64,000 nt of DNA from a virus (IMGVR_UViG_3300034024_000020:1-64000), one strand, 5' to 3'. Positions 7,335 to 48,952 are shown, counted from the first letter of the stretch. Program-made: numbers and translations. The notes: generated from the sequence alone by a model not told the origin.

Positions 7335-7702
7335 GTTCCTGAAAGGACATTTGGTATGACTGTAAAACGTGTGTATCATATTACAGCTGGCCATCGTGAA
7401 TTAACTTACGATGGTAAATTCCTCAGGATTGACGATAAAGTCAGTTTTGGAAACGCTTGGATTGATCAATTCATTGATGGCATCAATGAATTGAGAGCAG
7501 CCAGACAGAAGGACGAAATACGTGGCAGCTAAAAGATCTTTAACGGAGAGTATTAACGGAACCACACTCTTCATTGACCACGAAACTGTTCGCATTTTTA
7601 ATGGTAGAGAAATTACTCTATCCCTATACGGTATACATGCGAAACAATTTATGAATTTCGTAATTGAGGCACAAGCCTTCATCGAGGCGGAAAGAATTAG
7701 AA

Positions 7703-8116
7703 ATGCCAATTAAGATGTATTGTATCTTCTCGGAAGAGTCGGTACGAGCTATGCAAGGTAATAGAGGTAAGATGTGTGCTCAGGCTGGGCATGCATTTCT
7801 ACATTCTTATTGGGATAATATGGATCGTTTTAGTGAGTTTAATCTCAAAGACGATCCTGATGTTATCGATCATGCTATGCGTGTTCGCCAAGACTATGAA
7901 TTTGGTGATGACGCTCGCAAGATCACCTTAATCACTCCAACAACTGACGATCTTCGTCGGCTAGTAGAGAAATATCGTCCTATTACTGGTGTCACTCTCG
8001 TGGAAGATTGTGGATATACCGTAGTTGAGCCCGGCACGATTACCTGTGCTGGTATTGGACCCCTTCGTGACGAAGACAAGGACGATGAACTTAGAAGCCT
8101 AAGGATTTTCACGTGA
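7703..8116 (+). CDS. Peptidyl-tRNA hydrolase, PTH2 family
   Basis: GKMCAQAGHA and EDCGYT...PGTITCAGIGP motifs. Confidence 0.85.
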   Translation: MPIKMYCIFSEESVRAMQGNRGKMCAQAGHAFLHSYWDNMDRFSEFNLKDDPDVIDHAMRVRQDYEFGDDARKITLITPTTDDLRRLVEKYRPITGVTLVEDCGYTVVEPGTITCAGIGPLRDEDKDDELRSLRIFT

Positions 8117-16504: not shown

Positions 16505-16575
16505 ACTATGTGATCCGTCGGACGGAACTCCCCTCTAAAGGGACATATAAACAGGTTCAACTCCTGTACATAGTC
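16505..16575 (+). tRNA. Embedded tRNA-like element, anticodon CTA (amber-suppressor type), no CCA
   Basis: actatgt/acatagt acceptor; tccg/cgga D-stem; tccc-CTCTAAA-ggga anticodon arm; acagg-TTCAACT-cctgt T-arm. Confidence 0.7.
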
Positions 16576-25618: not shown

Positions 25619-25891
25619 ATGGAAGAGCAAGAAACTAACATTCTCAATCTTATCGCTGATATTCGCACTCTTGGCGATGATCTAGAAGAGCGTAGCGAAG
25701 AGCTGGCAAAGCTTGAAGGACAGGTTGAAGATACGAAGGAAGATGTAGAGCATCTTCGTGCTGAAATTCGTGCTAAGCGAGATCAGCTAGACGGAATTCT
25801 CGATGAGCTTATTCCTGACCGTCAGGAAGAGGACCGAGGTAGTGGTTACGGCAATTTTGACCTTGTAAGTCCGATTCGCAGTAACTATTAA
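25619..25891 (+). CDS. Coiled-coil hypothetical protein
   Basis: Heptad-rich ORF after promoter 25561. Confidence 0.65.
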   Translation: MEEQETNILNLIADIRTLGDDLEERSEELAKLEGQVEDTKEDVEHLRAEIRAKRDQLDGILDELIPDRQEEDRGSGYGNFDLVSPIRSNY

Positions 25892-25894
25892 GAT

Positions 25895-26222
25895 ATAGTC
25901 GTTGACGACTGTAGTAAAAGCCGGAGGATACGCGGGTTCAACTCCCGCCACCTCCACCAAAACAAGACCGCCTTTTGCGCAGAGGGTAGCTAGGTTGGCA
26001 GGGTGGCTCGCGCAGCTGTCCGACAGGTTCGAGTCCTGAGTGTCTTGTTTTGATGGGGGTGAACTGGGATCGACCGAGGGCGGAATAAGCAATCTGAGAC
26101 TATTGACTGGCAAAGTGCCATAAGTAAAGGCAAATGATAATGAGCCTATGGAGGAAATGGAGCTTCGCCTAGCGGCGTAAGCTCTCTCCGGGGACTGGCC
26201 CACCTGTCACAACAACGGGCCA
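25895..26222 (+). ncRNA. ssrA: Two-piece (circularly permuted) tmRNA
   Basis: Acceptor piece ends gcggg-ttcaact-cccgc-cacctcc-a-CCA (25959); coding piece starts GGGGGTG (26055) giving G3.U70; tag ANDNEPMEEMELRLAA* at 26130-26180. Confidence 0.9.
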
Positions 26223-26727
26223 ACAAGCCGCGAGGCATCATTAGAAGCAGGAGAAGCAATGTTAACAGTAAAAATACGTAATAAAGACGGAAATGAGAAT
26301 ATAATTGAAGCAACCAGCGTAGAATGGATCGAGAAGCCCACACAGGGTGAAGTAGGTCACATTATGCCTGGTGTTTTGGCACATCTGCCCAACGGAGGTT
26401 GTTCAGAATATTTGCTAGACGATAATCCCGGTATGACTATCTGGGTTATGAATAGAGCGGGTGCAACAGTTTCTAACTACATTTTTGGTGAGAGATAATG
26501 GGGCATTACTCTGACCTAATGGAAGAAGACGATCGACGACAAAGAGCAGCGGATGCGGAGCGTCGAGAACAGAAAGGGAACGAAGTCCTAAAAAGAACTA
26601 GAGTTCTATTTCATGGCGTAGGAATGCTAGACCGACATATTGATATGAAGGTCGCAGAATTAGAAGGCTTAATCCTTAGATATATCAGGGGTGGCTAATT
26701 TAACATGAAAGGCGGTGAAAACCATAT

Positions 26728-36381: not shown

Positions 36382-36472
36382 GGAGCAGAGAAGCGGGGCG
36401 GCCCCCGTCTCCGTCTTGAAAACGGAAGGTACCAGGGATGGTATGGAGATCGACACTACCCCTGCTCCGCCA
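36382..36472 (+). tRNA. tRNA-Ser(TGA), atypical D and T arms
   Basis: ggagcag/ctgctcc; loop ctTGAaa; long variable arm; CCA. Confidence 0.75.
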
Positions 36473-36762: not shown

Positions 36763-36833
36763 GCCGGTCCTATGGTAGGCCTGCGGCTCTCATAAGGCTG
36801 CGTGGGGGAGATCGTTACTCCTGACCGGTACCA
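36763..36833 (+). tRNA. tRNA-Met/Ile2(CAT), short D arm
   Basis: gccggtc/gaccggt; loop ctCATaa; CCA. Confidence 0.7.
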
Positions 36834-36991
36834 AAATTTGGAGTTCCTATGGCTGAATTTTATTATGTGCAGTGGGGCGATCTTGCCGCACTTAAATCTG
36901 AAATAACAAGGCTCAAAGAAAGAGTGCAAAAGCTGGAATCCAGTGAATATGGCACCACTATGGAACTTGAAAGACTAAAATCAAAGCTTGT

Positions 36992-37067
36992 GGACGTGTA
37001 GCTCAGTTGGCAGAGCGCGGGACTCTTAATCCTTAGGTCGTGGGTTCGAACCCCACCTCGTCTACCA
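36992..37067 (+). tRNA. tRNA-Lys(CTT)
   Basis: Canonical cloverleaf; CCA. Confidence 0.9.
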
Positions 37068-37141
37068 TTTTATGGCAGGTCTCTTAGTAAGAGTCGCGAT
37101 GTATACTAGCAAATAGGTGAAAGTCCTATACCTAGCCCCAA

Positions 37142-37217
37142 GGACCGTTCGTATAATAGGCTAATAGCGGGATTCTTACTCCTTGCGATCCGGGTTCAAA
37201 TCCCGGGCGGTCCTCCA
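37142..37217 (+). tRNA. tRNA-Lys(CTT), U discriminator
   Basis: ggaccgt/gcggtcc; loop ttCTTac; CCA. Confidence 0.75.
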
Positions 37218-37611
37218 TTTTAGAATTCCCGAATTTAGTTCTTGACACGGAGCCCAAATCTTGATATAATGGGCATTCAAGACGCGGGGAATGACAATGT
37301 ATCCGATGACGCAAGACTACAACGGAGAGCGTTGGAGGTACAGCGGAGTTTTGAAGCAAGTAACTGGTAACAGACTAGTCACGTACCGTGACATGAAAAC
37401 GGATACAAAGTTCATCTGTTATCTAGAAGTTGACGGAAATCTCGTTGAATGGAGTCTAGCTGACGAAATTCTAAGACGTTTCGAAGAGGGAGAAATCAAC
37501 AAATGAGTAGTTGTAGAACAAGAGATATTCCTAGTGGTACTCAGACTGTAATCAGACCTATTCTTAGAGAAGATATTCCAGGTGGCTGAAGGAACACGAG
37601 ACTAAAATAAT

Positions 37612-37695
37612 GGACCGGGAACCTAATCCTGATTGGCTGAAAGGGCTGGGCTTTTAATCCAGTGGTTGGGGGTTCGAATCCTCCCCGGTTCTCCA
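37612..37695 (+). tRNA. tRNA-Lys(TTT), enlarged D loop
   Basis: Loop ctTTTaa; T loop ttcgaat; CCA. Confidence 0.8.
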
Positions 37696-37960
37696 TAATC
37701 CCGAAAGGGATGGTATGCTCCTGCCTAAGCGGAGTCGCATTACGGTCTTTCTGCGTTATGAAAGTATCGGGCCCTGACACCCGTTGGATGAAAGTCGGGG
37801 GCGCTAGAAGTGGACGGCATCTAGCGCACTATAGAGTTTTTATTGCCGTGTGGCCGAGAGCTAACCTACAAGGGACCCCTTATCCACCTAGTGATTGTTC
37901 AGATGATACGGAAAGATCGGCTTAAGCCGTGCTCTGTTGACTTCTCCTTCAGCGGCATAT

Positions 37961-38035
37961 CAGGGTGAGCGAAAATGGTAATCTGTCGAGGCTTGGACCC
38001 CGACGAACTCGGTTCGATTCCGAGCACCCTGACCA
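37961..38035 (+). tRNA. tRNA-Pro(TGG)
   Basis: cagggtg/caccctg; loop ctTGGac; CCA. Confidence 0.8.
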
Positions 38036-38093
38036 TTTACGGAACGCTGAAGGTTAGAATGTCGAGCTCTAGCAGGTGAAAACCTTTCCATTT

Positions 38094-38171
38094 CCGGGTG
38101 TAGCTCAGTCAGGTCAGAGCACTCGCTTTGGGAGCGAGGGGCCGCAGGTTCGAATCCTGCTACCCGGACCA
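38094..38171 (+). tRNA. tRNA-Pro(TGG)
   Basis: Canonical cloverleaf; CCA. Confidence 0.92.
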
Positions 38172-38365
38172 TTTATGTCGGTAGTTCCTCACAGGGGGAA
38201 CGTGTTCTAATGCTTGCTCAGCTTAGGAGCCGACGCCACTTTATCGGGCGGGTAGCGAAAGCGAGCCGTCCGACCAATTTATCGCAGTCGGGCACAGACC
38301 CCTATAGATCGCCGGTGAGGATACACTGCGTGACTGCGGCCAAGTTCACACAACAAGGAGAATAT

Positions 38366-38845
38366 ATGTTTAAGACACTATTTGCAGCTACTGCTGCCCT
38401 AGCATTAACTGCAACGCCAGCTCTGGCTCGTACCAACGACGCCTTTGTTGGACCACGCGTAGAAGCTAATGTCGGCTTTGCTGACGTTGGTAACGATGAT
38501 GTCAATTATGGTATCAGCGCAGGATTCGATGCGCCAGTCGCTGATCGAATTACTTTAGGTGTGGATGTGGATGGACAGAATATATTCGAGGGACATAGAA
38601 CCCTCGGTGTAGGAGCTCGTCTAGGTGCTGCTGTGAGTCCAAAGACTCTAGTTTTCGGCCGCGTCGGATATAGCCGAAGCGACCTTAACGATAATAGCTT
38701 AGACCTAGAGGGTCTGGCTGCTGGCGGTGGAGCACAGTTTGCTCTGACAAACAACGCTTACGTATCAACAGAATACCGTTACACTGATTTCAATCAGGGA
38801 CGTGGAGATCATGGGGTCCGAGTAGGACTTGGTTTGCGCTTCTAA
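38366..38845 (+). CDS. Outer-membrane beta-barrel protein (OmpA-like TM domain / small porin)
   Basis: Signal peptide (PALA); alternating beta strands; EYRYTDF; C-terminal GLGLRF. Confidence 0.85.
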   Translation: MFKTLFAATAALALTATPALARTNDAFVGPRVEANVGFADVGNDDVNYGISAGFDAPVADRITLGVDVDGQNIFEGHRTLGVGARLGAAVSPKTLVFGRVGYSRSDLNDNSLDLEGLAAGGGAQFALTNNAYVSTEYRYTDFNQGRGDHGVRVGLGLRF

Positions 38846-38871
38846 GGCGTAATCCTTGGCACCATGATGCA

Positions 38872-38906
38872 GCCCGGCCTGATTAAGTTCAGGCCGGGTT
38901 TTTTAT
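38872..38906 (+). terminator. Intrinsic terminator
   Basis: gcccggcctga-ttaagt-tcaggccgggt-tttttt. Confidence 0.8.
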
Positions 38907-39203
38907 TGGCTTTTGCCAAGGGAACTCTGCGTTCAAATTGCCTGATAGGTCTCAGAATTTAGTTCTTGACATGGAGGCCAAAAGTTGTTATAATGGGTCT
39001 CAATAAGCGGGAAGGCTCATAAAATGTTAGATCAAGTAGTCGAAGGTCTTAAGTCTTACCTCAAAGACCCTGCTAGTACTGACTATCAAAAGGGTTATCT
39101 GGCTGCTCTTATTGATCTTTATGCTCATCCTGGTAGGGTTGGAGCTTTATCTCCAGGTGAGTTTGTAGCTCTTCAACATCAGATACATTGATTATTTTCT
39201 TGT

Positions 39204-39290
39204 GCCTCCGTGGCGAAGTTGGTAGACGCGCTAGGTTTAGGTCCTAGTGGAAGAGATTCCGGGCAGGTTCGACCCCTGTCGGAGGTACCA
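39204..39290 (+). tRNA. tRNA-Leu(TAG)
   Basis: Type II cloverleaf; CCA. Confidence 0.9.
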
Positions 39291-39475
39291 GAAAGTAATC
39301 AGAAAGGCTAAAATGTATTACATTATGCGTGTTAATACTGATCCTCAAGGTGGCGGTGCTCATTTTGTTGGAGTAGCTGAAGTTAAGCACAATCTCAACG
39401 ATGCACGTGAATGGATAGAAGACAACACGAAAAGTTCGTGGGATGCTTTTGAGATTATGCAAAAGGTAGATTAAT

Positions 39476-39562
39476 GCCCCCTTGGTGAAGTTGGTAGACG
39501 CGACAGACTTAAAATCTGTTGGCCTTCGGGTCGGGCCGGTTCGATTCCGGCAGGGGGTACCA
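39476..39562 (+). tRNA. tRNA-Leu(TAA)
   Basis: Type II cloverleaf; CCA. Confidence 0.9.
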
Positions 39563-39568
39563 TTTAAT

Positions 39569-39653
39569 GGGTAGTTAAAGTCGTTTGGATACGGCAGCCT
39601 GACTGTAAATCAGGTCTGTAATGGGAGAGGTTCGAGTCCTCAACTACCCACCA
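39569..39653 (+). tRNA. tRNA-Tyr(GTA)
   Basis: Loop ctGTAaa; CCA. Confidence 0.85.
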
Positions 39654-40009
39654 TTTTAGGTATTGACCATGTCAGTAGTTCAGTTTTTCTTTGATCGCTT
39701 TCACAGAGCGATCCAGATGGATGGAGTTCACAGTTCTAGTCTAAGAAATCAGCTAGACGCTGATGAATGGATACAGGCATATAAGAATACCCTGAGTAAG
39801 AATCAGCTGGACAAATTCGACAAAGAATGGGCTAAGTGCGAAGAAGCGCTTAGACTAGCTCGAAGAAAGGCTGATTTTGGCAAGTAATGGCAGCGTGGAG
39901 TCGATAGGGACACGCGTGCGACCTCGTCAAGCACAAAGGGCTAGCGTTTGAGCCTTCACCCTGGACAAGTGAAGGGTAAGTTAGCGACGAGACGTTCCTC
40001 TCTTTAGGT

Positions 40010-40086
40010 GTGGCCGAGGCTGACTTGGTTGAGGCGCTGGTTTGTGGTACCAGAGATAGCGGGTTCGACCCCCGCCGGTCACCCCT
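40010..40086 (+). tRNA. tRNA-His(GTG)
   Basis: gtggccg/cggtcac; C discriminator; CCA not fully encoded. Confidence 0.8.
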
Positions 40087-40349
40087 AAGGAGAGCGCTAT
40101 GAGTTACTATGATTTCCCTCAAGGCCCTTCTTTAGAAGACCTTGAAAAGGCAGCTAACGCTATTAAAACGGCACGCTTAGAACAGAACTACGGCTGGGGC
40201 TTTTATGATTATATTCCAGAGCCAACCATTAGAGAGGCTTGGGATTACGTACAAAATCAGAAGTGGCCTGACAGGTAGGTTAGCTGAAAAAAGTTCTTGA
40301 CATGATGCCCATTTTTCGATATAATGGGACTTCAAGCGGCGAGGACAAC

Positions 40350-40622
40350 ATGGCGTTCTTTTACAACGAAAATGAACCCTTCACAGGCGGAGTTATTCCT
40401 TACCATAAGGTTAACGCTAACAGGTCCTATTTGAGGCACTATGAGAACAGTTTGTTCTTGCAGTTTATGCTCAATAATGGAACGATGGAAGAACGTCGTC
40501 AGGCTAGCAAGGAACTAGCGATCTGCGATCGCAAAATGTCTCGTATGGAAAAGCACGCCAACTTCATTTGGGATGCTGTTCTTCCCGAGATTGAAAAACT
40601 AAAGAAAAATTGGCACACTTAA
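40350..40622 (+). CDS. Hypothetical phage protein
   Basis: Promoter 40297; GAGG RBS. Confidence 0.65.
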   Translation: MAFFYNENEPFTGGVIPYHKVNANRSYLRHYENSLFLQFMLNNGTMEERRQASKELAICDRKMSRMEKHANFIWDAVLPEIEKLKKNWHT

Positions 40623-40624
40623 GT

Positions 40625-40698
40625 TCGCATTAGCCGAACAAGGTGGACGGAACTGACTGTTAATCAGTGCATGAGAGGTTCGATTCCTCTAATGCGAA
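40625..40698 (+). tRNA. tRNA-Asn(GTT)
   Basis: Loop ctGTTaa; no encoded CCA. Confidence 0.8.
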
Positions 40699-40714
40699 CT
40701 TAATTGTGCTATAA

Positions 40715-40788
40715 TGCCCCATCTTCTAATGGTAAGAAGCGTGGCTCTGAACCACTCAATGCACGTTCGACTCGGGCTGGGGCATCCA
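40715..40788 (+). tRNA. tRNA-Gln(CTG)
   Basis: tgcccca/tggggca; loop ctCTGaa; CCA. Confidence 0.85.
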
Positions 40789-40871
40789 TTTTCAACAGGT
40801 ACTCTTACTGGTGCGTCTGCAAAATTCACTGGTAAGGAAGGGAGCGGTGCAGACGTTCCCGAGAGTTTCAT

Positions 40872-40951
40872 GGCGCGGTCTTCTAACATAGGACTAGGAA
40901 CCCTGACTTTCAATCAGGCCAATGCGGGTTCGAATCCCGTCCGCGCTACCA
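40872..40951 (+). tRNA. tRNA-Glu(TTC)
   Basis: Loop ctTTCaa; CCA. Confidence 0.85.
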
Positions 40952-41025
40952 TTTCAGGAGAATTACAGTGGGCTTTATTCTTTTCCTTATAATTCTCTCA
41001 ATCCTCGTTCGAGGAAATCTTTAAT

Positions 41026-41100
41026 GCTAGTCTAGCTCAGTGGTAGAGCGCCTGCTCGACACGCAGGGGGCGCAGGGTTCAATTCCCTGGACTAGCACCA
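41026..41100 (+). tRNA. tRNA-Val(GAC)
   Basis: Canonical cloverleaf; CCA. Confidence 0.88.
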
Positions 41101-41101
41101 T

Positions 41102-41177
41102 GCTGGGTTAGCTTAGTGGTAAAGCGCAAGGTTGTGGACCTCCGTCTAGACAGGTTCGACTCCTGTATCTAGTTCCA
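41102..41177 (+). tRNA. tRNA-His(GTG), atypical
   Basis: Loop ttGTGga; weak anticodon stem; CCA. Confidence 0.65.
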
Positions 41178-41357
41178 TTTAGAAAGTACCAAATGAAAAA
41201 GCTTTATACTGGCGTTAACGGACGCAAAGTAGCGCTTGATCTAAGTAAGGTAGAAGCCATTCTGGACGAAGATGATGGTCGTGTAGACCTCTTTAGTTCA
41301 GCCGATTGGTATAAGATTTTAGCAGATTTCGACGAAGTCTATAAAGACTGGTCGCAA

Positions 41358-41434
41358 GCCCGATGAGATGGCTAGGTGAAGTCGCCTCTTTTACATGGAG
41401 GAAATGAGCGGTTCGAATCCGTTATCGGGTACCA
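41358..41434 (+). tRNA. tRNA-Val(TAC)
   Basis: gcccgat/atcgggt; loop ttTACat; CCA. Confidence 0.8.
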
Positions 41435-41439
41435 TTTTT

Positions 41440-41528
41440 GGAGTGTACAAGCAGCTGGGAGCTGTCTTCGCTTGGAAAGCGAAAGGTGCTTTAATTAGCA
41501 TCCGATTCGAATTCGGGGCGCTCCGCCA
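41440..41528 (+). tRNA. tRNA-Ser(GGA)
   Basis: Long variable arm; loop ttGGAaa; CCA. Confidence 0.8.
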
Positions 41529-41534
41529 TATTTT

Positions 41535-41611
41535 GTCGCTGTCGTCTAGTTGGTCTAGGACGCCAGGTTCTCAACCTGGAAACGGGAGTTCGAATCTCCT
41601 CAGCGGTACCA
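41535..41611 (+). tRNA. tRNA-Glu(CTC)
   Basis: Canonical cloverleaf; CCA. Confidence 0.9.
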
Positions 41612-41694
41612 CAGTTTCAGGATGACTGGCGTCCACCTTTTGTCTGGCCAGACGGGTGTAAAGTGGGTTCAATTCCCTGCCTGAGAGCAATAAT

Positions 41695-41772
41695 GCCGCG
41701 GAGGTGTAGCTGGAGCAAGCACATCGGCTTGAAACCCCGAAGGGTAGGGTTCGATTCCCTGTCGCGGCACCA
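41695..41772 (+). tRNA. tRNA-Phe(GAA)
   Basis: gccgcgg/tcgcggc; loop ttGAAac; CCA. Confidence 0.75.
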
Positions 41773-42191
41773 TTATTTAGCTAAGCATCCGACAAGTAGG
41801 TCAATGAAAATTGGGTGTTACGGGGTAGGAAGCTTGATGTTGACTTGAAAGCTACAATGCTCCGCTAAAGGATTATCAATGATTACTTCTTGTGATAAAT
41901 GCTGGTCCTTACCATGTACTTGCGGACATGATTATAAAGGATTAAGTGTAGCCCAAATTAGAGGATTAATCCTACAACTGGAAGCAAGATTGGGTCGAGC
42001 CGCTCTTGAGGATTACGATGAGAGGCAATCTTGGCGATGATTTGGACTATTCTTGTAACAATTTATGCGACGGGTTTTGTTTTTACAATCTATATAGTCG
42101 AGTGGCAATTCTACAGAAGCTTAGGTTTTAATTTAGCCAACATATTTATTACAGCTACAATTTGGCCACTCTTCCTAATTATAGCTCATAT

Positions 42192-42266
42192 GCTACCTTA
42201 GCTCAGTGGAAGAGCACTCCCTTGGTAAGGGAAAGGTCAAGAGTTCAATCCTCTTAGGTAGCACCA
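42192..42266 (+). tRNA. tRNA-Thr(GGT)
   Basis: Canonical cloverleaf; CCA. Confidence 0.9.
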
Positions 42267-42949
42267 TTAAAGAAAGCACAGATAGTGAAGACTAAACGGA
42301 ATAAGTTCAATATCGAGTGGCTTTATGCGAAACAAGTTTGGGATGCGTTGAAAAACGGACTCCCAGTACCTCCCGTACCTAACTACAGTGTATGGGAGAT
42401 TAATGAGAAAACCGGCAAGCAGAAGCTTATCAAAGAGCTTCCAATCGAGCCTATGAGGGTGACTTGCAATGGCAGAAGCTTTCCAGACTAGCTTAGAAGT
42501 CTGTCCCACCTGTAACTCCCTAATTACAGATGAGGAATTTGTAGTAAATTGGGGTGGTTGCGGGGCGTGCTTAGACGAAAGTTATGAGCAATATTTAGCA
42601 GAGAAGGGCTTTGTTGAAGAATATAGGCTCTTCTGAATTTAGTTCTTGACTTGGAACTGGATTTTTCATATAATGGCTTAATGAAAACGGCATTTTGCAT
42701 TAAATGTGGACATGAATACAACATAAAGCGTTTAGAGTTGGGATACAGAACCTGCTTAGATTGCGGTTCTCCAGTTTTTAGACCTCCTGTTGTTCCAGTC
42801 GCTAAATCGAATTACATTGTTGGTACGATGAGCGAATTGCGCGAGTCTTACAATCACAAAGGACATAAATAATGAATGATGATAGCATTGTTCTTTTGGC
42901 AGCCATTATAGCCATTGTTATAATGAGCTACTTCTTTAGTAGAGATTAA

Positions 42950-43025
42950 GCTTCGATAGCTCAGTAGGTAGAGCAGAGGACTGAAAATCCTCGTGTCGGC
43001 GGTTCGATCCCGTCTCGAAGCACCA
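42950..43025 (+). tRNA. tRNA-Phe(GAA)
   Basis: Canonical cloverleaf; CCA. Confidence 0.93.
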
Positions 43026-43026
43026 C

Positions 43027-43103
43027 GGGGCTGTGGTGATTATGGTAAACACATATGCTTGTCAAGCATACATAAGCGGGATCGTTACCCGTCAGCCTCG
43101 CCA
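43027..43103 (+). tRNA. tRNA-Asp(GTC)
   Basis: Loop ttGTCaa; atypical T loop atcgtta; CCA. Confidence 0.8.
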
Positions 43104-43271
43104 TTTAAAGACCCGACGATACCGGCTAGGCAAACCGGGACGCAACTTTACTCTTAAAAGAGTAATGATCAAGGCAGGGTTAAATAAGCTGCCCAACAAC
43201 GGCCGGAGTGTCCCGAAAGGGCGATGAGTCCGATTAAGTTACGGAGCGAGGTCGCACTCCATACAGTTTAA

Positions 43272-43347
43272 GCTTCCGAAGCATTGCTGGCGATGCAACC
43301 GCCTTGTAAGCGGACGATAGAGGGTTCGATTCCTTCCGGGAGCACCA
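43272..43347 (+). tRNA. tRNA-Thr(TGT)
   Basis: Loop ctTGTaa; CCA. Confidence 0.88.
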
Positions 43348-43703
43348 TTAATTGCTGATAGTTTAATAGGATGGTGAGATAGGGAGTCGACGCCTGATGT
43401 AGCCACGCAATAACTGGTAAGTTTTAGTTCGCGGCTAGAATACTGCCAGCCAAGGGCGAAAACAGTGTCCGCGGAGGGCGCAGATGTGGTAGAAATCCAC
43501 GAAGCAATACATTTAGAAAGATAAAGATGCAAGATTTAGGTCAGGTTATGAATAATTGGAACCCAAATCCAGTTCGTTTCGATCCTGAAAATATGGATTG
43601 GGGTTACTGGGATGAAACTTGGTCCTATTGGACCGGAGGTTATCAAACGGAAGCCGAAGCCAATAAAGCCTTGCAAGAATATTGCGAACACTATCTATAA
43701 TAA

Positions 43704-43783
43704 CGGCCGGTGGCGGAGCATGGCCCAACGCACGAGATTGCAACCCTCGAAAACCGCCGGTTCAAATCCGGCCCGGTCGTCCA
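43704..43783 (+). tRNA. tRNA-Cys(GCA)
   Basis: Loop ttGCAac; U73; CCA. Confidence 0.88.
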
Positions 43784-43964
43784 TTTTAGGAGTAATATGA
43801 AAACAGCGGGTTATATTATTTCTGCACTGAGTGTGTTTTTACTGGCAATAGCTGCTACTATTGGTCCAGACGCGGAACCATTTGAGATTTACCTTTGGGC
43901 AGGTGTTATAGCTTCCCTAGTGGGTATGTTTTTGAGATGGCTTTCATATAGATTTGTAGAATAA

Positions 43965-44040
43965 GGGGGATTAGCTCATCTGGGAGAGCGCCTGCTTTGC
44001 AAGCAGGAGGTGATCGGTTCGAGTCCGATATCCTCCACCA
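43965..44040 (+). tRNA. tRNA-Ala(TGC)
   Basis: Canonical; G3.U70; CCA. Confidence 0.93.
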
Positions 44041-44058
44041 TATAAAAGGAGTAAGTAA

Positions 44059-44349
44059 CTGAAAAAGGTAGGTTTTACCATTATGACCGCGAACGCTGAC
44101 CTTGAAAGAAAGGTTAAGCAAATCGACGCATTCCTTCTCAAGGGAGAAGAAGTACGCGTAAGCGTTGATGTTAAACGTGGTCAAGGTCGAATTTTCGGTG
44201 CTGCTCTTGACAAGCTGAACCTAATTACGGGGAAGCTTGAAAACGCAAAAGTTATTGCTAAACCGTCCCAAAAGGGTGCGGGTTATCAAACAGTTATACG
44301 GGCCGGTAGCTCAATTGGGAGAGCGCTTGACTTGCAATCAGGAAGATAG
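44059..44349 (+). CDS. Translation initiation factor IF3, C-terminal domain only; probable CTG start
   Basis: KKVGF.....ADLERKVKQIDAFLLKGEEVRVSV pattern of IF3-C; AAGGAG RBS 7 nt before the in-frame CTG at 44059. Confidence 0.7.
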   Translation: MKKVGFTIMTANADLERKVKQIDAFLLKGEEVRVSVDVKRGQGRIFGAALDKLNLITGKLENAKVIAKPSQKGAGYQTVIRAGSSIGRALDLQSGR

Positions 44350-44374
44350 GGTTCGACTCCCTCCGTGTCCACCA
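44300..44374 (+). tRNA. tRNA-Ala(TGC)
   Basis: Loop ctTGCaa; CCA; overlaps the IF3-C ORF end. Confidence 0.8.
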
Positions 44375-44550
44375 TTTTAGGGTTGTAATGAATGCTAGAA
44401 TATGATGATTACACTCTTCTTTTAGATTGTTATGAAGATATAGATGCTTTTTCTAGAGATGGTATGAGATATACTATGACTCCCAGTGAAATGTCATCTT
44501 TAATCGTCATGTTAGACATTCTAAAACCTCAATTAAAAGAATTGCATTAA

Positions 44551-44641
44551 GTGCGCGTGGCGAAAATTAAGGCAGACGCACTAGCTTGAGTAGCTAGCGG
44601 GATAGTATCTCATGAGGGTTCGAGCCCCTCCGTGCACACCA
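44551..44641 (+). tRNA. tRNA-Leu(GAG)
   Basis: Type II cloverleaf; CCA. Confidence 0.85.
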
Positions 44642-44764
44642 GAGGTAAATATGTATTACGATGAATATCCAGAAACAGAAGGTTGTTTGGGTTATGTAGC
44701 AGGCGCACTTATTGCTGCTGCCGTTATAGGTATCGTAGCACTTATCTTTATATCAATTTCTTGA

Positions 44765-44838
44765 TGCCGATTCTCCTAGTGGTAAGGATGCCGCCTGATT
44801 AGCGGTCTACGGGAGTTCGATTCTCCCATCGGCTACCA
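44765..44838 (+). tRNA. tRNA-Ile(GAT), atypical
   Basis: Loop ctGATta; CCA. Confidence 0.7.
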
Positions 44839-44973
44839 TTTCGACTGAAGACCTAAGGCAGGTCGCCACTGATCCGGAGATAGCTGGTTCGATTCCAGTC
44901 AGTCAAACGCAAACCCTACCCAAAGGGTAGCCGACAGGGTTGGAAGGATCGGCTCTAGTTTGCGATATTTTAT

Positions 44974-45047
44974 GCTCCTATAGCTCAATGGTAGAGCCCG
45001 CGGCCGATAACCGCTTGACGGAGGTTCGATTCCTTCTAGGAGTACCA
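44974..45047 (+). tRNA. tRNA-Ile(GAT)
   Basis: Canonical cloverleaf; CCA. Confidence 0.88.
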
Positions 45048-45048
45048 T

Positions 45049-45137
45049 GCCCTGCTGGCGGAACCCGGTAGACGCAGCGGTTTCAAACACCGTACCCCAA
45101 TTTGGGGCTGTGGGTTCGACTCCCACGCAGGGTACCA
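45049..45137 (+). tRNA. tRNA-Leu(CAA)
   Basis: Type II cloverleaf; CCA. Confidence 0.88.
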
Positions 45138-45698
45138 TAGCTTAAAATAGTTCTTGACTTTGAGTTCAAACTTTCATATAATGGGTCATAAGATGAAAAA
45201 CGGCACAATGCAAATTGCGGCAGAAGCGTTCGGATGAATTGATTCGAACTTTGAGAATTGCATTTGCTAAACTAGCAGGAATTAAATTGAATGACAAGTA
45301 GAGACTTTGCATATTGGCTACAGGGCTTATTCGAGTTGGCCGAGGTTAGGACACTGGATGCAAGGCAAACGGAGTTGATTAAACGGCATCTCCATATGGT
45401 ATTCATCCATGAAATTGATCCTAGCTTTCCAGACGAAGAGCAAGGCCCTTTAACCGCCGCGCATAACGGGGTTCGTCCCGGCGGCCTAATTGCGAAGTGC
45501 TTATATGACTTATAAAGATTTTGCAGCTTGGCTCGAAGGAGTCATTGATAGTAATCCGGAAGGATTAGACGCAGATAAGTTAAAGATTATTTCTGGAAAG
45601 ATTAAGACTTTGACTTTTCCAGGTGAACCAAAAAAGCAGCCGGGTGACGGTGCTTGGGTAAATCCTTATCCAAACGCAGTACGCTGCTAAGAGCATAT

Positions 45699-45773
45699 AT
45701 GGGTCAGGTCGATCGGGGATGACAGCAGCCTCCAAAACTGCCGAGCAGGGTTCGAGTCCCTGGACCCATGCCA
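45699..45773 (+). tRNA. tRNA-Trp(CCA)
   Basis: Loop ctCCAaa; G73; CCA. Confidence 0.85.
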
Positions 45774-45857
45774 TTTAAGGAAAAAATGGATCCAATTTCA
45801 ATTCTAGTCATCGTTCTAATTATTCTAGCGATTGTTTACTTCGCTAAGCGAGTTTGA

Positions 45858-45934
45858 TGCGGGGACAAGCCTTGGTAGGCTAGACTGTCTCATAAGCAGT
45901 TTCATTGTGAGTTCGATTCTCACCTCCGCCACCA
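45858..45934 (+). tRNA. tRNA-Met(CAT) with 1:72 mismatch
   Basis: Loop ctCATaa; CCA. Confidence 0.75.
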
Positions 45935-45951
45935 TTTCAAAAGGACTATCT

Positions 45952-46443
45952 ATGTTGGATCAAGCAATAAAAGCTATCAAGGCTTCCAGCCAAAGTAGCA
46001 GCGTCTACATTGGATGCGACTCTGTACGATTCAAGAAGAATGTCAACGGTCGTCAGCAAAGCTTTGCTCGATATGCAACCGTAGTCGTTCTTCACATGGA
46101 TAGCCTTCACGGTTGTCAGCTCTTCTACAAGGAAGATGTTCTGCCTGATTATGGTAAAAAGACTGAAAGTCTCTTTAACCGGCTCATGCAAGAGGCTACC
46201 TTCGCTATTGAAGTAGCTGGCGAAATCATTCCACATCTAGATGACCGACATCTAGAAATCCACCTTGACATTAACCCAAGTGAGGCTCACGCTTCCAATC
46301 AGGCGGCTAAAGCCGCAATCGGTTATGTTTTAGGTACAACTGAAATTAGACCTAAGATCAAGCCTGAAGCGTTTGCTGCGATGTTTGCAGCGGATCGGGT
46401 TTGTAACGGTAAGCTTAAGAACCAAGTCTTCAATCGAGGCTGA
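45952..46443 (+). CDS. RNase H-like YkuK family protein
   Basis: VYIGCDS, RLMQE, EIHLDIN, IKPEAFAA..AAD motifs. Confidence 0.8.
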   Translation: MLDQAIKAIKASSQSSSVYIGCDSVRFKKNVNGRQQSFARYATVVVLHMDSLHGCQLFYKEDVLPDYGKKTESLFNRLMQEATFAIEVAGEIIPHLDDRHLEIHLDINPSEAHASNQAAKAAIGYVLGTTEIRPKIKPEAFAAMFAADRVCNGKLKNQVFNRG

Positions 46444-46642
46444 GACCCACTAGCCGCCTGGGTTACTTGATTGGATAGGTATGCCGGGTGCTAAAGGCGG
46501 ATTGCCCGGCATTACCAGTTAGGAAATAATATGCTACGAATTATTGGTTACATTATCAGTGGTGAATGGATGACTAAGTTCAATAAACCAGGAGATGTGT
46601 ATCTTAGATCAGACGGAACATGGTCTGATAGATAAGCTTTTT

Positions 46643-46721: not shown

Positions 46722-46803
46722 ACCCTTGTAGCCGGTTCAGGTTTCGACCCTGTTATCCGTAATGGAGCTGCAAATGTAGGTTCGACTCCTATCAAGGGTG
46801 CCA
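46722..46803 (+). tRNA. tRNA-like RNA, anticodon TCG (Arg), D arm absent, long variable region
   Basis: acccttg/caagggt-g-CCA; cagg-ttTCGac-cctg; normal T arm. Confidence 0.55.
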
Positions 46804-46849: not shown

Positions 46850-47715
46850 TCAAAACGACGGAAATAACAAGTTTGGCCGTATGGGGTCATTAGGGTAAGG
46901 GTGGCGACACCCCCAAAGCAGGGAAGCTTACATACCTGCGCTCGCAAGAGTCCATCTATACAAGCCTACATCACGCCCGAAAGGGTGTCTTCGTGAAGAG
47001 CGGAGATAGTCGTGAAGTGAGGTTGAGGAAAGAATTCTGGTCGATGTCCCGCAAGGAAGGCAGGCTGGAGAAGAACGGGGTAGTAGCCGTCTCTCAGCAC
47101 ACTAAACTCGCGAACGATGATGGTAAATGGTAGTGCCATTGTTCGATGCTTAGCGGCAAAGGGCTTCGGTGCAATTCAAACGGTTGGTGGGAGTCACACC
47201 CACGTAGATCGTGAAGAATGATTGAGTAGGTTTAGCAGACCAAAAGATAGCATAGGCGTGTTGTATTTCGTAGATTAATAGTCTGCGAAGCGACAGAGGT
47301 AGCACGTCTTGGTAAGTTAATGCAATTTGTTCAATGGTAGAACATTAGTCTATGAAACTGAGAGTGTTGGTTCGATTCCAACATTGCAAGCTATAAAAAC
47401 GCAAAGACTACCTCGGTATACAGCGAAAGTCATCTAATGCCGGACTAAAGAATTCGGCCTAGGAAAGCTCGCAAGGCAGACCTAGTTCATGGTAGATCGC
47501 TCATAAATCTCTTAGCGGAGGTTGAACGGCTCGCAAGGTCGGTGGGAAGGAAATCGTGGAGTAGTTGTATATGTCACCGCAAAAGCTAGCGGTATATCAA
47601 ATGAGCGATGATGTTCATTAGTGGCAACCCTGCCTCTGGAAACCTGATTAAGCACCTCGCAAAAGGTCCGCGTACGGTCAGAAGATTGAACAATTAATAG
47701 GTGTATTCTCAGCCT
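46850..47715 (+). ncRNA. GOLLD-like large ncRNA (~865 nt)
   Basis: Own promoter (46815); ORF-free; many GCAA/GAAA-capped hairpins; GAGTAG..AAAG..GGCGTGTTGTATT segment and 3' end GGTGTATTCTCAGCCT recalled as GOLLD-like; lies inside a phage tRNA array. Confidence 0.75.
47321..47388 (+). tRNA. tRNA-like element embedded in the GOLLD-like RNA, anticodon ATG
   Basis: tgcaat/attgca; gttc/gaac D-stem; ttagt-ctATGaa-actga; gttgg-ttcgatt-ccaac; no CCA. Confidence 0.7.
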
Positions 47716-47733: not shown

Positions 47734-47767
47734 ATGTCGCCCAGGTTCGGAAGAAAGCAAGCGGCAT
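47734..47767 (+). ncRNA. Minimal SRP RNA helix-8-like hairpin
   Basis: atgtcgc-c-CAGG-ttc-GGAA-gaa-AGCA-a-gcggcat. Confidence 0.6.
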
Positions 47768-48507: not shown

Positions 48508-48595
48508 GGAGGGGTAACCTGATAGGATCAGGGCTCGCCTGCTACGCGAAGCGGAGTGAAATACCTCTGGGTTTCGATTACCCACCCTTCCTCCA
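48508..48595 (+). tRNA. tRNA-Ser(GCT), atypical
   Basis: Loop ctGCTac; long variable arm; CCA. Confidence 0.75.
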
Positions 48596-48822: not shown

Positions 48823-48952
48823 TTATTAGGTAGGGCACATCCCTTAAATCACCGATTTGAGTTCGGAAGCCTAAGGATGGGACAAATCTGGATTAGCGTT
48901 ATCACGGTGCACTTAGTGATTAAAACGGCAGATACCCCATCCATCAATAATT

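Follow-up and report, generated by a model that had tools for sequence, protein, structure and literature searches.

What are the short, CCA-ended elements, each without an anticodon, that occupy tRNA positions in the tRNA array of a phage? We addressed this question for IMGVR_UViG_3300034024_000020:1-64000, a 64,000-nucleotide (nt) stretch of viral DNA (hereafter the window), which constitutes the first 64 kb of a single virus record of 115,703 bp that is rated complete. A preliminary description of the window had listed five short stems ending in a discriminator plus CCA, and what it described was present at all five coordinates. We confirm that four of these elements, here termed units 1-4 (37074-37140, 38177-38238, 38245-38276 and 38283-38342, respectively, all on the + strand), are real at these coordinates, with folds that end in N-CCA, and that they are tRNA-gene-like both in placement and in punctuation; the fifth (46478-46517) does not belong with them. 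We propose, with a probability of about one half, that each of units 1-4 encodes a small non-decoding RNA and stands in a tRNA slot of the phage tRNA operons. The kind itself is known from phages T5 and T4; what is new is its minimal form, which goes down to 32 nt.

Results

Placement and punctuation of units 1-4

Units 1-4 are tiled flush with true tRNA genes, being set off by spacers of 1 or 5-6 nt, such that the tRNA-gene-like spacing proposed for them is borne out. Unit 1 exactly fills a 74-nt gap between two tRNA-Lys genes, the first of which (36992-37067) is followed by the spacer TTTTAT, the unit, the spacer A and the second tRNA-Lys gene (37142-37217). Units 2-4 are, as had been noticed, consecutive; they are chained behind a canonical tRNA-Pro(UGG) gene (38094-38171, + strand) in the order TTTAT, unit 2, CTTTAT, unit 3, ATTTAT, unit 4. 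The same two spacings, either 1 nt or 5-6 U-rich nt, separate genuine tRNA pairs in the array.

Each unit is directly preceded by a TTTAT leader (37069-37073, 38172-38176, 38240-38244 and 38278-38282 for units 1, 2, 3 and 4, respectively, + strand), and all four have U at position -1. The motif CCA-N(0-1)-TTTAT is found at five + strand positions genome-wide, and the junctions before units 1-4 account for four of them. No true tRNA in the array carries the TTTAT leader, and its restriction to units 1-4 is an argument that their excision is under selection.

By itself, the combination of a stem with N and CCA is common, with ~90 examples per strand in the ~115-kb genome (7 bp, spans of 25-100 nt), and the non-tRNA matches of this type within the array (~8) agree with the genome background. 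Placement is a different matter: the probability that a unit starts in a given 7-nt window after a CCA, as measured outside the array, is 0.002 (for 7 bp) to 0.007 (for 6 bp), which, with ~45 tRNAs, gives a value of ~1e-6 for a three-unit chain arising by chance.

Predicted folds

The predicted fold of unit 1 (67 nt) has a 7-bp terminal stem with one bulged A (GGC-AGGU/ACCU-A-GCC) and the 3' end C-CCA. Stacked on the 3' strand of this stem is a hairpin that resembles a T-arm (5 bp, with the 7-nt loop UGAAAGU), giving a 7+5 stack; there is also a 5' hairpin, and 19 nt are unpaired at the place of the anticodon arm. Unit 2 (62 nt) folds as a Y-shaped three-way junction (z = -2.45), comprising a 6-bp stem (GUCGGU/GCCGAC), a 7-bp hairpin and a 9-bp bulged hairpin, followed by G-CCA; its second hairpin extends the 3' strand of the terminal stem, in the manner of a tRNA T-arm.

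Unit 3 is a 32-nt minihelix (z = -2.99) with a 7-bp stem, a symmetric GUA/GAG 3x3 internal loop, two G-C bp and a GAAA loop, i.e. 12 stacked layers, and its ends (CGGGCGG...CCGUCCG-A-CCA) were also picked up by a strict 7-bp scan. The G-C-closed internal loop (38252-38265) may resemble the loop E submotif of bacterial 5S rRNA, to which ribosomal protein L25 binds. The proline-like character ascribed to unit 3 is evident, in that the proline-type acceptor elements C1:G72 and A73 are present both in the unit and in the two tRNA-Pro genes that it adjoins. In Escherichia coli the acceptor elements for prolyl-tRNA synthetase are G72 and A73; charging of unit 3 is doubtful because it lacks the anticodon elements G35 and G36. 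Unit 4 (60 nt) has a perfect 7-bp stem (CGCAGUC/GACUGCG) followed by G-CCA and a weakly structured interior; since the hexamer ACUGCG can be read twice in its sequence, a competing pairing is possible. Folding of the entire 197-nt stretch leaves the structures of units 2-4 unchanged.

The absence of an anticodon from units 1-4, as originally proposed, is consistent with the database comparisons. The Rfam tRNA model (RF00005) gave no match to any of them at E up to 10 and with lax filters (74- and 179-nt queries), ARAGORN made no tRNA call, and the other Rfam matches were insignificant (IRES_HCV, pemK). The units have no paralogues in the phage genome, and none looks like a resident tRNA copied and internally deleted in recent times, with at most 15 of 24 end positions being shared.

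Other candidate elements

The element at 46478-46517 (+ strand) was excluded from the set: UA intervenes between its 8-bp stem and the CCA or, alternatively, the CC pairs with the 5' GG; the nearest tRNAs are 544 nt and 124 nt away; the shared punctuation is missing; and in a relative from soil the block 46428-46641 is swapped for 86 other bases. A candidate at 48829-48943 was also rejected, as its best fold pairs the CC of the CCA and the soil relative skips this block. The 50-nt segment between the tRNA-Pro genes (38041-38090), in whose best fold the CC of CCA is likewise paired, is doubtful and only a possible member.

The operon containing units 2-4

A consensus promoter (TTGACA-17-TATAAT, 12/12 matches, TG extended; 37242..37270, + strand) and an intrinsic terminator (12-bp stem and T run; 38871..38900, + strand) delimit the 1.7-kb operon in which units 2-4 lie. 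Between the two are, in order, a 71-residue open reading frame (ORF), tRNA-Lys(UUU), a 265-nt ORF-free stretch, two tRNA-Pro genes, units 2-4 and a gene for an outer-membrane β-barrel protein, after which the terminator stands. The first of the tRNA-Pro(UGG) genes (37961-38035, + strand) is divergent, as is the tRNA-Lys(UUU); the ORF-free stretch between them (37696-37960) is helix-rich and had no Rfam match.

The β-barrel protein gene (38366..38845, + strand; 159 residues, Pfam OMP_b-brl) has the ribosome-binding site AAGGAG, and its start codon lies 23 nt past the end of unit 4. Homologues of the protein have 155-165 residues, the best being 92% identical (P0001, on a 22.6-kb Logan contig). 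A ribosome-binding site and a small ORF come just a few nt behind many tRNAs of the array, and hence the array units punctuate mRNAs too.

Slot fillers in related phages

Three relatives in IMG/VR have DNA polymerases that are 69-71% identical to that of the phage and arrays of 22-32 tRNAs. One of them (G002, DNA polymerase 71% identical) has a 57-nt slot filler (L123:14953-15009, - strand) with a 6-bp stem followed by U-CCA, which lies 1 nt behind tRNA-Gly(UCC) and 7 nt ahead of tRNA-Met and has no Rfam tRNA match. A 64-nt CCA-ended non-tRNA unit located 5' of tRNA-Val is common to G001 and G002 (L122:10325-10388 and L123:8620-8683, - strand). Its inner 6-bp helix reads CTAAAG/CTTTAG in one copy and CAAGGG/CCCTTG in the other, with three pairs changed and all of them compensated, which argues that selection acts on the structure of at least one member of the kind; of the two copies, the second has the weaker terminal stem. 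The presence of slot fillers in relatives implies that the kind is recurrent in the lineage, and to judge from the sequences compared, its individual members would seem to turn over quickly.

Other routes to related loci were less productive. Loci reached via the outer-membrane protein (in IMG/VR and the JGI metagenomes) encode proteins at most 45% identical and have other surroundings, and those reached via a 229-residue protein are at most 48% identical, with an array in one locus only (L009), where it is differently arranged; for an RNaseH-like protein and for the 71-residue ORF, IMG/VR contained no relatives. Three soil sequencing runs carry a relative, whose cover of the array is confined to 44.1-48.8 kb and does not include 37-38.4 kb. 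A degenerate pattern of unit 3 gave a single match in GTDB genomes, which lies in GC-rich coding DNA with no tRNA nearby and was rejected as chance, and in a 24-kb part of the tRNA region of Xanthomonas phage XacN1 no clear minihelix adjoining a tRNA was found.

The RNA island, the phage and its probable host

Units 1-4 are part of a 13-kb RNA island (36.0-49.1 kb), which has more than 40 tRNA genes, a GOLLD RNA and many small ORFs, all on the + strand. ARAGORN identified 35 tRNAs in the island. Use of Rfam or a stem scan added divergent tRNAs at 36763-36833, 37612-37695, 37961-38035, 44551-44641, 46722-46803 and 48508-48595. Together with 36382-36472, these are CCA-ended tRNA-like genes missed by ARAGORN; they have odd D or T arms (e.g. 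the T loop ATCGTTA), several attain the Rfam tRNA score, and their anticodons, as read by eye, are UGA, CAU, UUU, UGG, GAG and GCU. CCA is encoded in ~40 of 43 tRNAs, typically with TTTA or TTTT after it and usually with T before the 5' end; the phage lacks a CCA-adding enzyme. A further tRNA, with a CUA anticodon, was called by ARAGORN at 16505-16575, far from the main array.

The GOLLD RNA (47251-47715) scored 156.9 bits in Rfam, which is above the gathering score; it holds a tRNA-like insert (47320-47391), in place of which the soil relative has 78 other bases. A weak Rfam match to the apex of the bacterial signal recognition particle RNA (24.9 bits, E 0.16) was observed at 47734-47767, directly 5' of tRNA-Arg. 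An 83-nt gap at 41612-41694, with a T-arm-like GGGTTCAATTCCC hairpin and flanking TCAGG/CCTGA complementarity and without CCA, may be a further tRNA-like remnant. Perfect TTGACA-17-TATAAT promoters occur five times in 13.6 kb (at 37242, 38966, 40297, 46815 and 49284), and several of these have the upstream context TAGTTCTTGAC in common.

By sequence the phage is T5-like, its family-A DNA polymerase being ~45% identical to T5-like phage counterparts. A biocrust metagenome, which is probably the source sample, was the sole near-full DNA match among sequencing runs. Cellular homologues of the phage outer-membrane protein come from Sphingomonas, and both these and a permuted transfer-messenger RNA (25866-26271) point to an alphaproteobacterial host.

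Discussion

If units 1-4 are genes for small non-decoding RNAs, as we prefer to read them, they would be transcribed together with the tRNAs from the consensus promoters, host RNase P would cut their 5' ends, and RNase E and exonucleases would remove the U-rich spacer as far as the encoded CCA; the resulting RNAs, of 32-67 nt, would have the acceptor end as their sole tRNA feature. Bacterial RNase P, which is known to cut hairpin-NCCA model substrates and requires no more than a helix with single-stranded NCCA behind it, cleaves hairpins that have a single-stranded RCCA tail, with a preference for U at -1, and A/U-rich trailers are trimmed to the encoded CCA by RNase E and 3' exonucleases. The features of a minimal RNase P substrate, namely a helix of ~12 stacked pairs, a single-stranded RCCA tail and, by preference, U at -1, are present in the units (U at -1 in 4/4; stacks of ~12 layers can be counted in the folds), with N73 being G, A and G in units 2-4, respectively, but C in unit 1. 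With such established knowledge in mind, excision of the units as discrete RNAs is likely, and the finding of one leader on four unrelated sequences suggests selection for the efficient cutting of substrates that have no elbow. The units are probably tRNA-derived, in view of the 7+5-bp acceptor/T-arm stack retained by unit 1 and the proline-type end of unit 3, which neighbors two tRNA-Pro genes.

The view that elements of this type are undescribed as a set is overstated, given that T5 has annotated stable non-tRNA RNAs among its tRNA genes and that T4 has rnaC and rnaD. The RefSeq record of T5 (NC_005859) contains eight misc_RNAs inside the tRNA region, annotated as stable or tRNA-like and with 'unknown functions', those that are named being RNA I, RNA III, RNA IV and tRNA-like RNA 1, 2 and 3. 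Like units 1-4, and in the same type of phage family, the T5 RNAs share the strand of the tRNAs, within whose cluster they directly adjoin both tRNAs and one another, and three consecutive ones (rna1, rnaI and rnaIII) abut tRNA-His, much as units 2-4 are chained behind tRNA-Pro. The likeness to the units includes the end of T5 RNA I (107 nt), with its terminal stem GGCUC/GAGCC followed by G-CCA; T5 rna3 ends in ACCA. The T5 RNAs are, however, larger (73-172 nt compared with 32-67 nt), and they have been seen as RNA species, whereas the units described here are known from DNA alone. In T4, from an unrelated phage family, rnaC and rnaD (the species 1 and 2 RNAs; 119-139 nt) are small stable RNAs with tRNA-like parts that close the tRNA cluster, with rnaD running into ...GCACC-A and rnaC containing a T-arm. 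No homology of units 1-4 to the T5 or T4 RNAs was found, blastn-short returning 8-nt chance matches only. The precedents in T5 and T4 nevertheless make the units a smaller variant of a long-known kind, and by analogy they may be grouped with T5 RNA I, RNA III and RNAs 1-3 and with T4 species 1 and 2. A search of open full text found no literature on encoded CCA-ended minihelices in phage arrays, or on the T5 stable RNAs.

Two further comparisons are informative with respect to what the units retain. The units are like tRNA (RF00005) in having an acceptor-like stem, a discriminator, an encoded CCA and a position in the array, and differ from it in having neither an anticodon arm nor a match to the model. 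Minihelices and microhelices are well-established model substrates for RNase P, the CCA-adding enzyme, some synthetases and EF-Tu. The synthetic acceptor/T-arm minihelices have the same design as unit 3, with ~12 layers, a small loop, a discriminator and CCA, and are also matched by unit 1, with its 7+5-bp stack and 7-nt loop. The synthetic molecules are laboratory constructs whereas the units are encoded, and in unit 3 the place of a T-arm is taken by a GAAA tetraloop and an internal loop.

As to what the RNAs might do, we suggest, tentatively, a trans-acting function, most likely mimicry of the acceptor end: once released, they would be competitors for proteins whose recognition is limited to the acceptor stem and CCA, e.g. 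defence toxins with the tRNA 3' end as their site of modification. In favor of mimicry, the acceptor end is the sole tRNA feature that the units have retained, and their four ends are mutually different (G1:C72/C73, G1:C72-U2:A71/G73, C1:G72/A73 and C1:G72/G73 for units 1-4, respectively). For FaRel2, a CCA-modifying toxin whose recognition is confined to the acceptor stem and CCA, synthetic minihelices serve as efficient substrates (bioRxiv 10.1101/2024.07.05.602228). The phage also encodes a PTH2-family peptidyl-tRNA hydrolase (7664-8116; 48 bits, exceeding the cut-off), as would suit a phage for which the tRNA 3' end is of importance. Action as a decoy is a plausible hypothesis. We are more doubtful about a bolder version of it, in which the units would be a natural panel of minihelix decoys that soaks up acceptor-end defence enzymes, potentially including toxSAS pyrophosphokinases, GNAT acetyltransferases and MenT-type nucleotidyltransferases, or would be charged and serve as anticodon-free carriers of amino acids.

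Several observations weigh against units 1-4 being genes for functional RNAs. The interiors of units 1 and 4 are no better folded than shuffled sequences (z = -0.6 and -0.9, respectively). No orthologue of any unit was detected when 36900-38400 was compared by blastn with 50,697 phage records, with only the tRNA parts being matched, and a search of IMG/VR for exact copies of unit 3 yielded 0 matches. Sequences like units 1-4 are absent from the arrays of the three IMG/VR relatives, two of which have the orthologue of the second tRNA-Lys(CUU) with no unit 1 located 5' of it. The run search listed no RNA sequencing run with this DNA. A decoy would, moreover, need a high copy number.

Some of these observations favor a reading of the units as relics of tRNA genes, left by duplication and internal deletion, in which only the signals for RNase P (stem, NCCA and leader) would be selected and the fragments would have no function of their own; in a tightly packed transcript, a cut at the 5' end of the next unit would release the 3' end of the preceding tRNA. 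The units adjoin duplicated isoacceptors (two tRNA-Lys(CUU) and two tRNA-Pro(UGG) genes), their interiors are heterogeneous and poorly structured, and the proline-type end of unit 3 and the T-arm-like hairpin of unit 1 are suggestive of such an origin. The lack of orthologues, together with the non-homology of the slot fillers in relatives, suggests fast turnover, and there is a precedent in T5 in the form of a tRNA gene flagged as a pseudogene. Release of tRNA-Pro, however, needs only unit 2, which would leave units 3 and 4 free to decay, yet both have stems with 7/7 positions paired. Nor would relics be expected to have a TTTAT leader that is common to four unrelated units and absent from true tRNAs; unit 3, in particular, is a compact 12-layer, GNRA-capped hairpin rather than a ragged remnant, and no unit is close to a resident tRNA. 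On balance, the relic explanation, which corresponds to the refuting case named in the preliminary description (unconserved, decayed tRNA remnants), is the main and a serious alternative, albeit one that we consider less likely than our preferred reading.

The position of unit 4, which ends 23 nt before a start codon and whose 3' flank is without a U-rich spacer, raises the prospect that unit 4, if not all of units 2-4, serves as a leader and processing element of the outer-membrane protein mRNA, with RNase P parting the mRNA from the tRNAs and a 5' hairpin stabilizing it. Punctuation of mRNAs by tRNA-type elements is indeed a local rule, as apparent from the tRNAs that have a ribosome-binding site and a small ORF behind them. 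This explanation is improbable, because a single cut would suffice whereas there are three units, because a stabilizing hairpin has no need of a free NCCA tail, and because there is no ORF behind unit 1. Chance, finally, is very improbable as the origin of the stems and CCA of units 1-4: although the abundance of such stems (~90 per strand per 115 kb) fits the element at 46478-46517, and perhaps that at 38041-38090, it does not account for the flush tiling, the shared leader or a chain with a probability of ~1e-6.

Stable non-tRNA RNAs of the T4 and T5 clusters have been annotated for decades without an assigned function. Units 1-4 are the smallest version of the kind, down to 32 nt, which suggests that the acceptor end and its processing are the part that matters. 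Should the units prove to act in trans as mimics, nature would offer in them a counterpart to the synthetic minihelices of tRNA biochemistry, and they would represent a novel class of phage counter-measure in the contest for the tRNA 3' end. As relics, they would exemplify how, in polycistronic tRNA arrays, gene decay is shaped by the constraints of processing.

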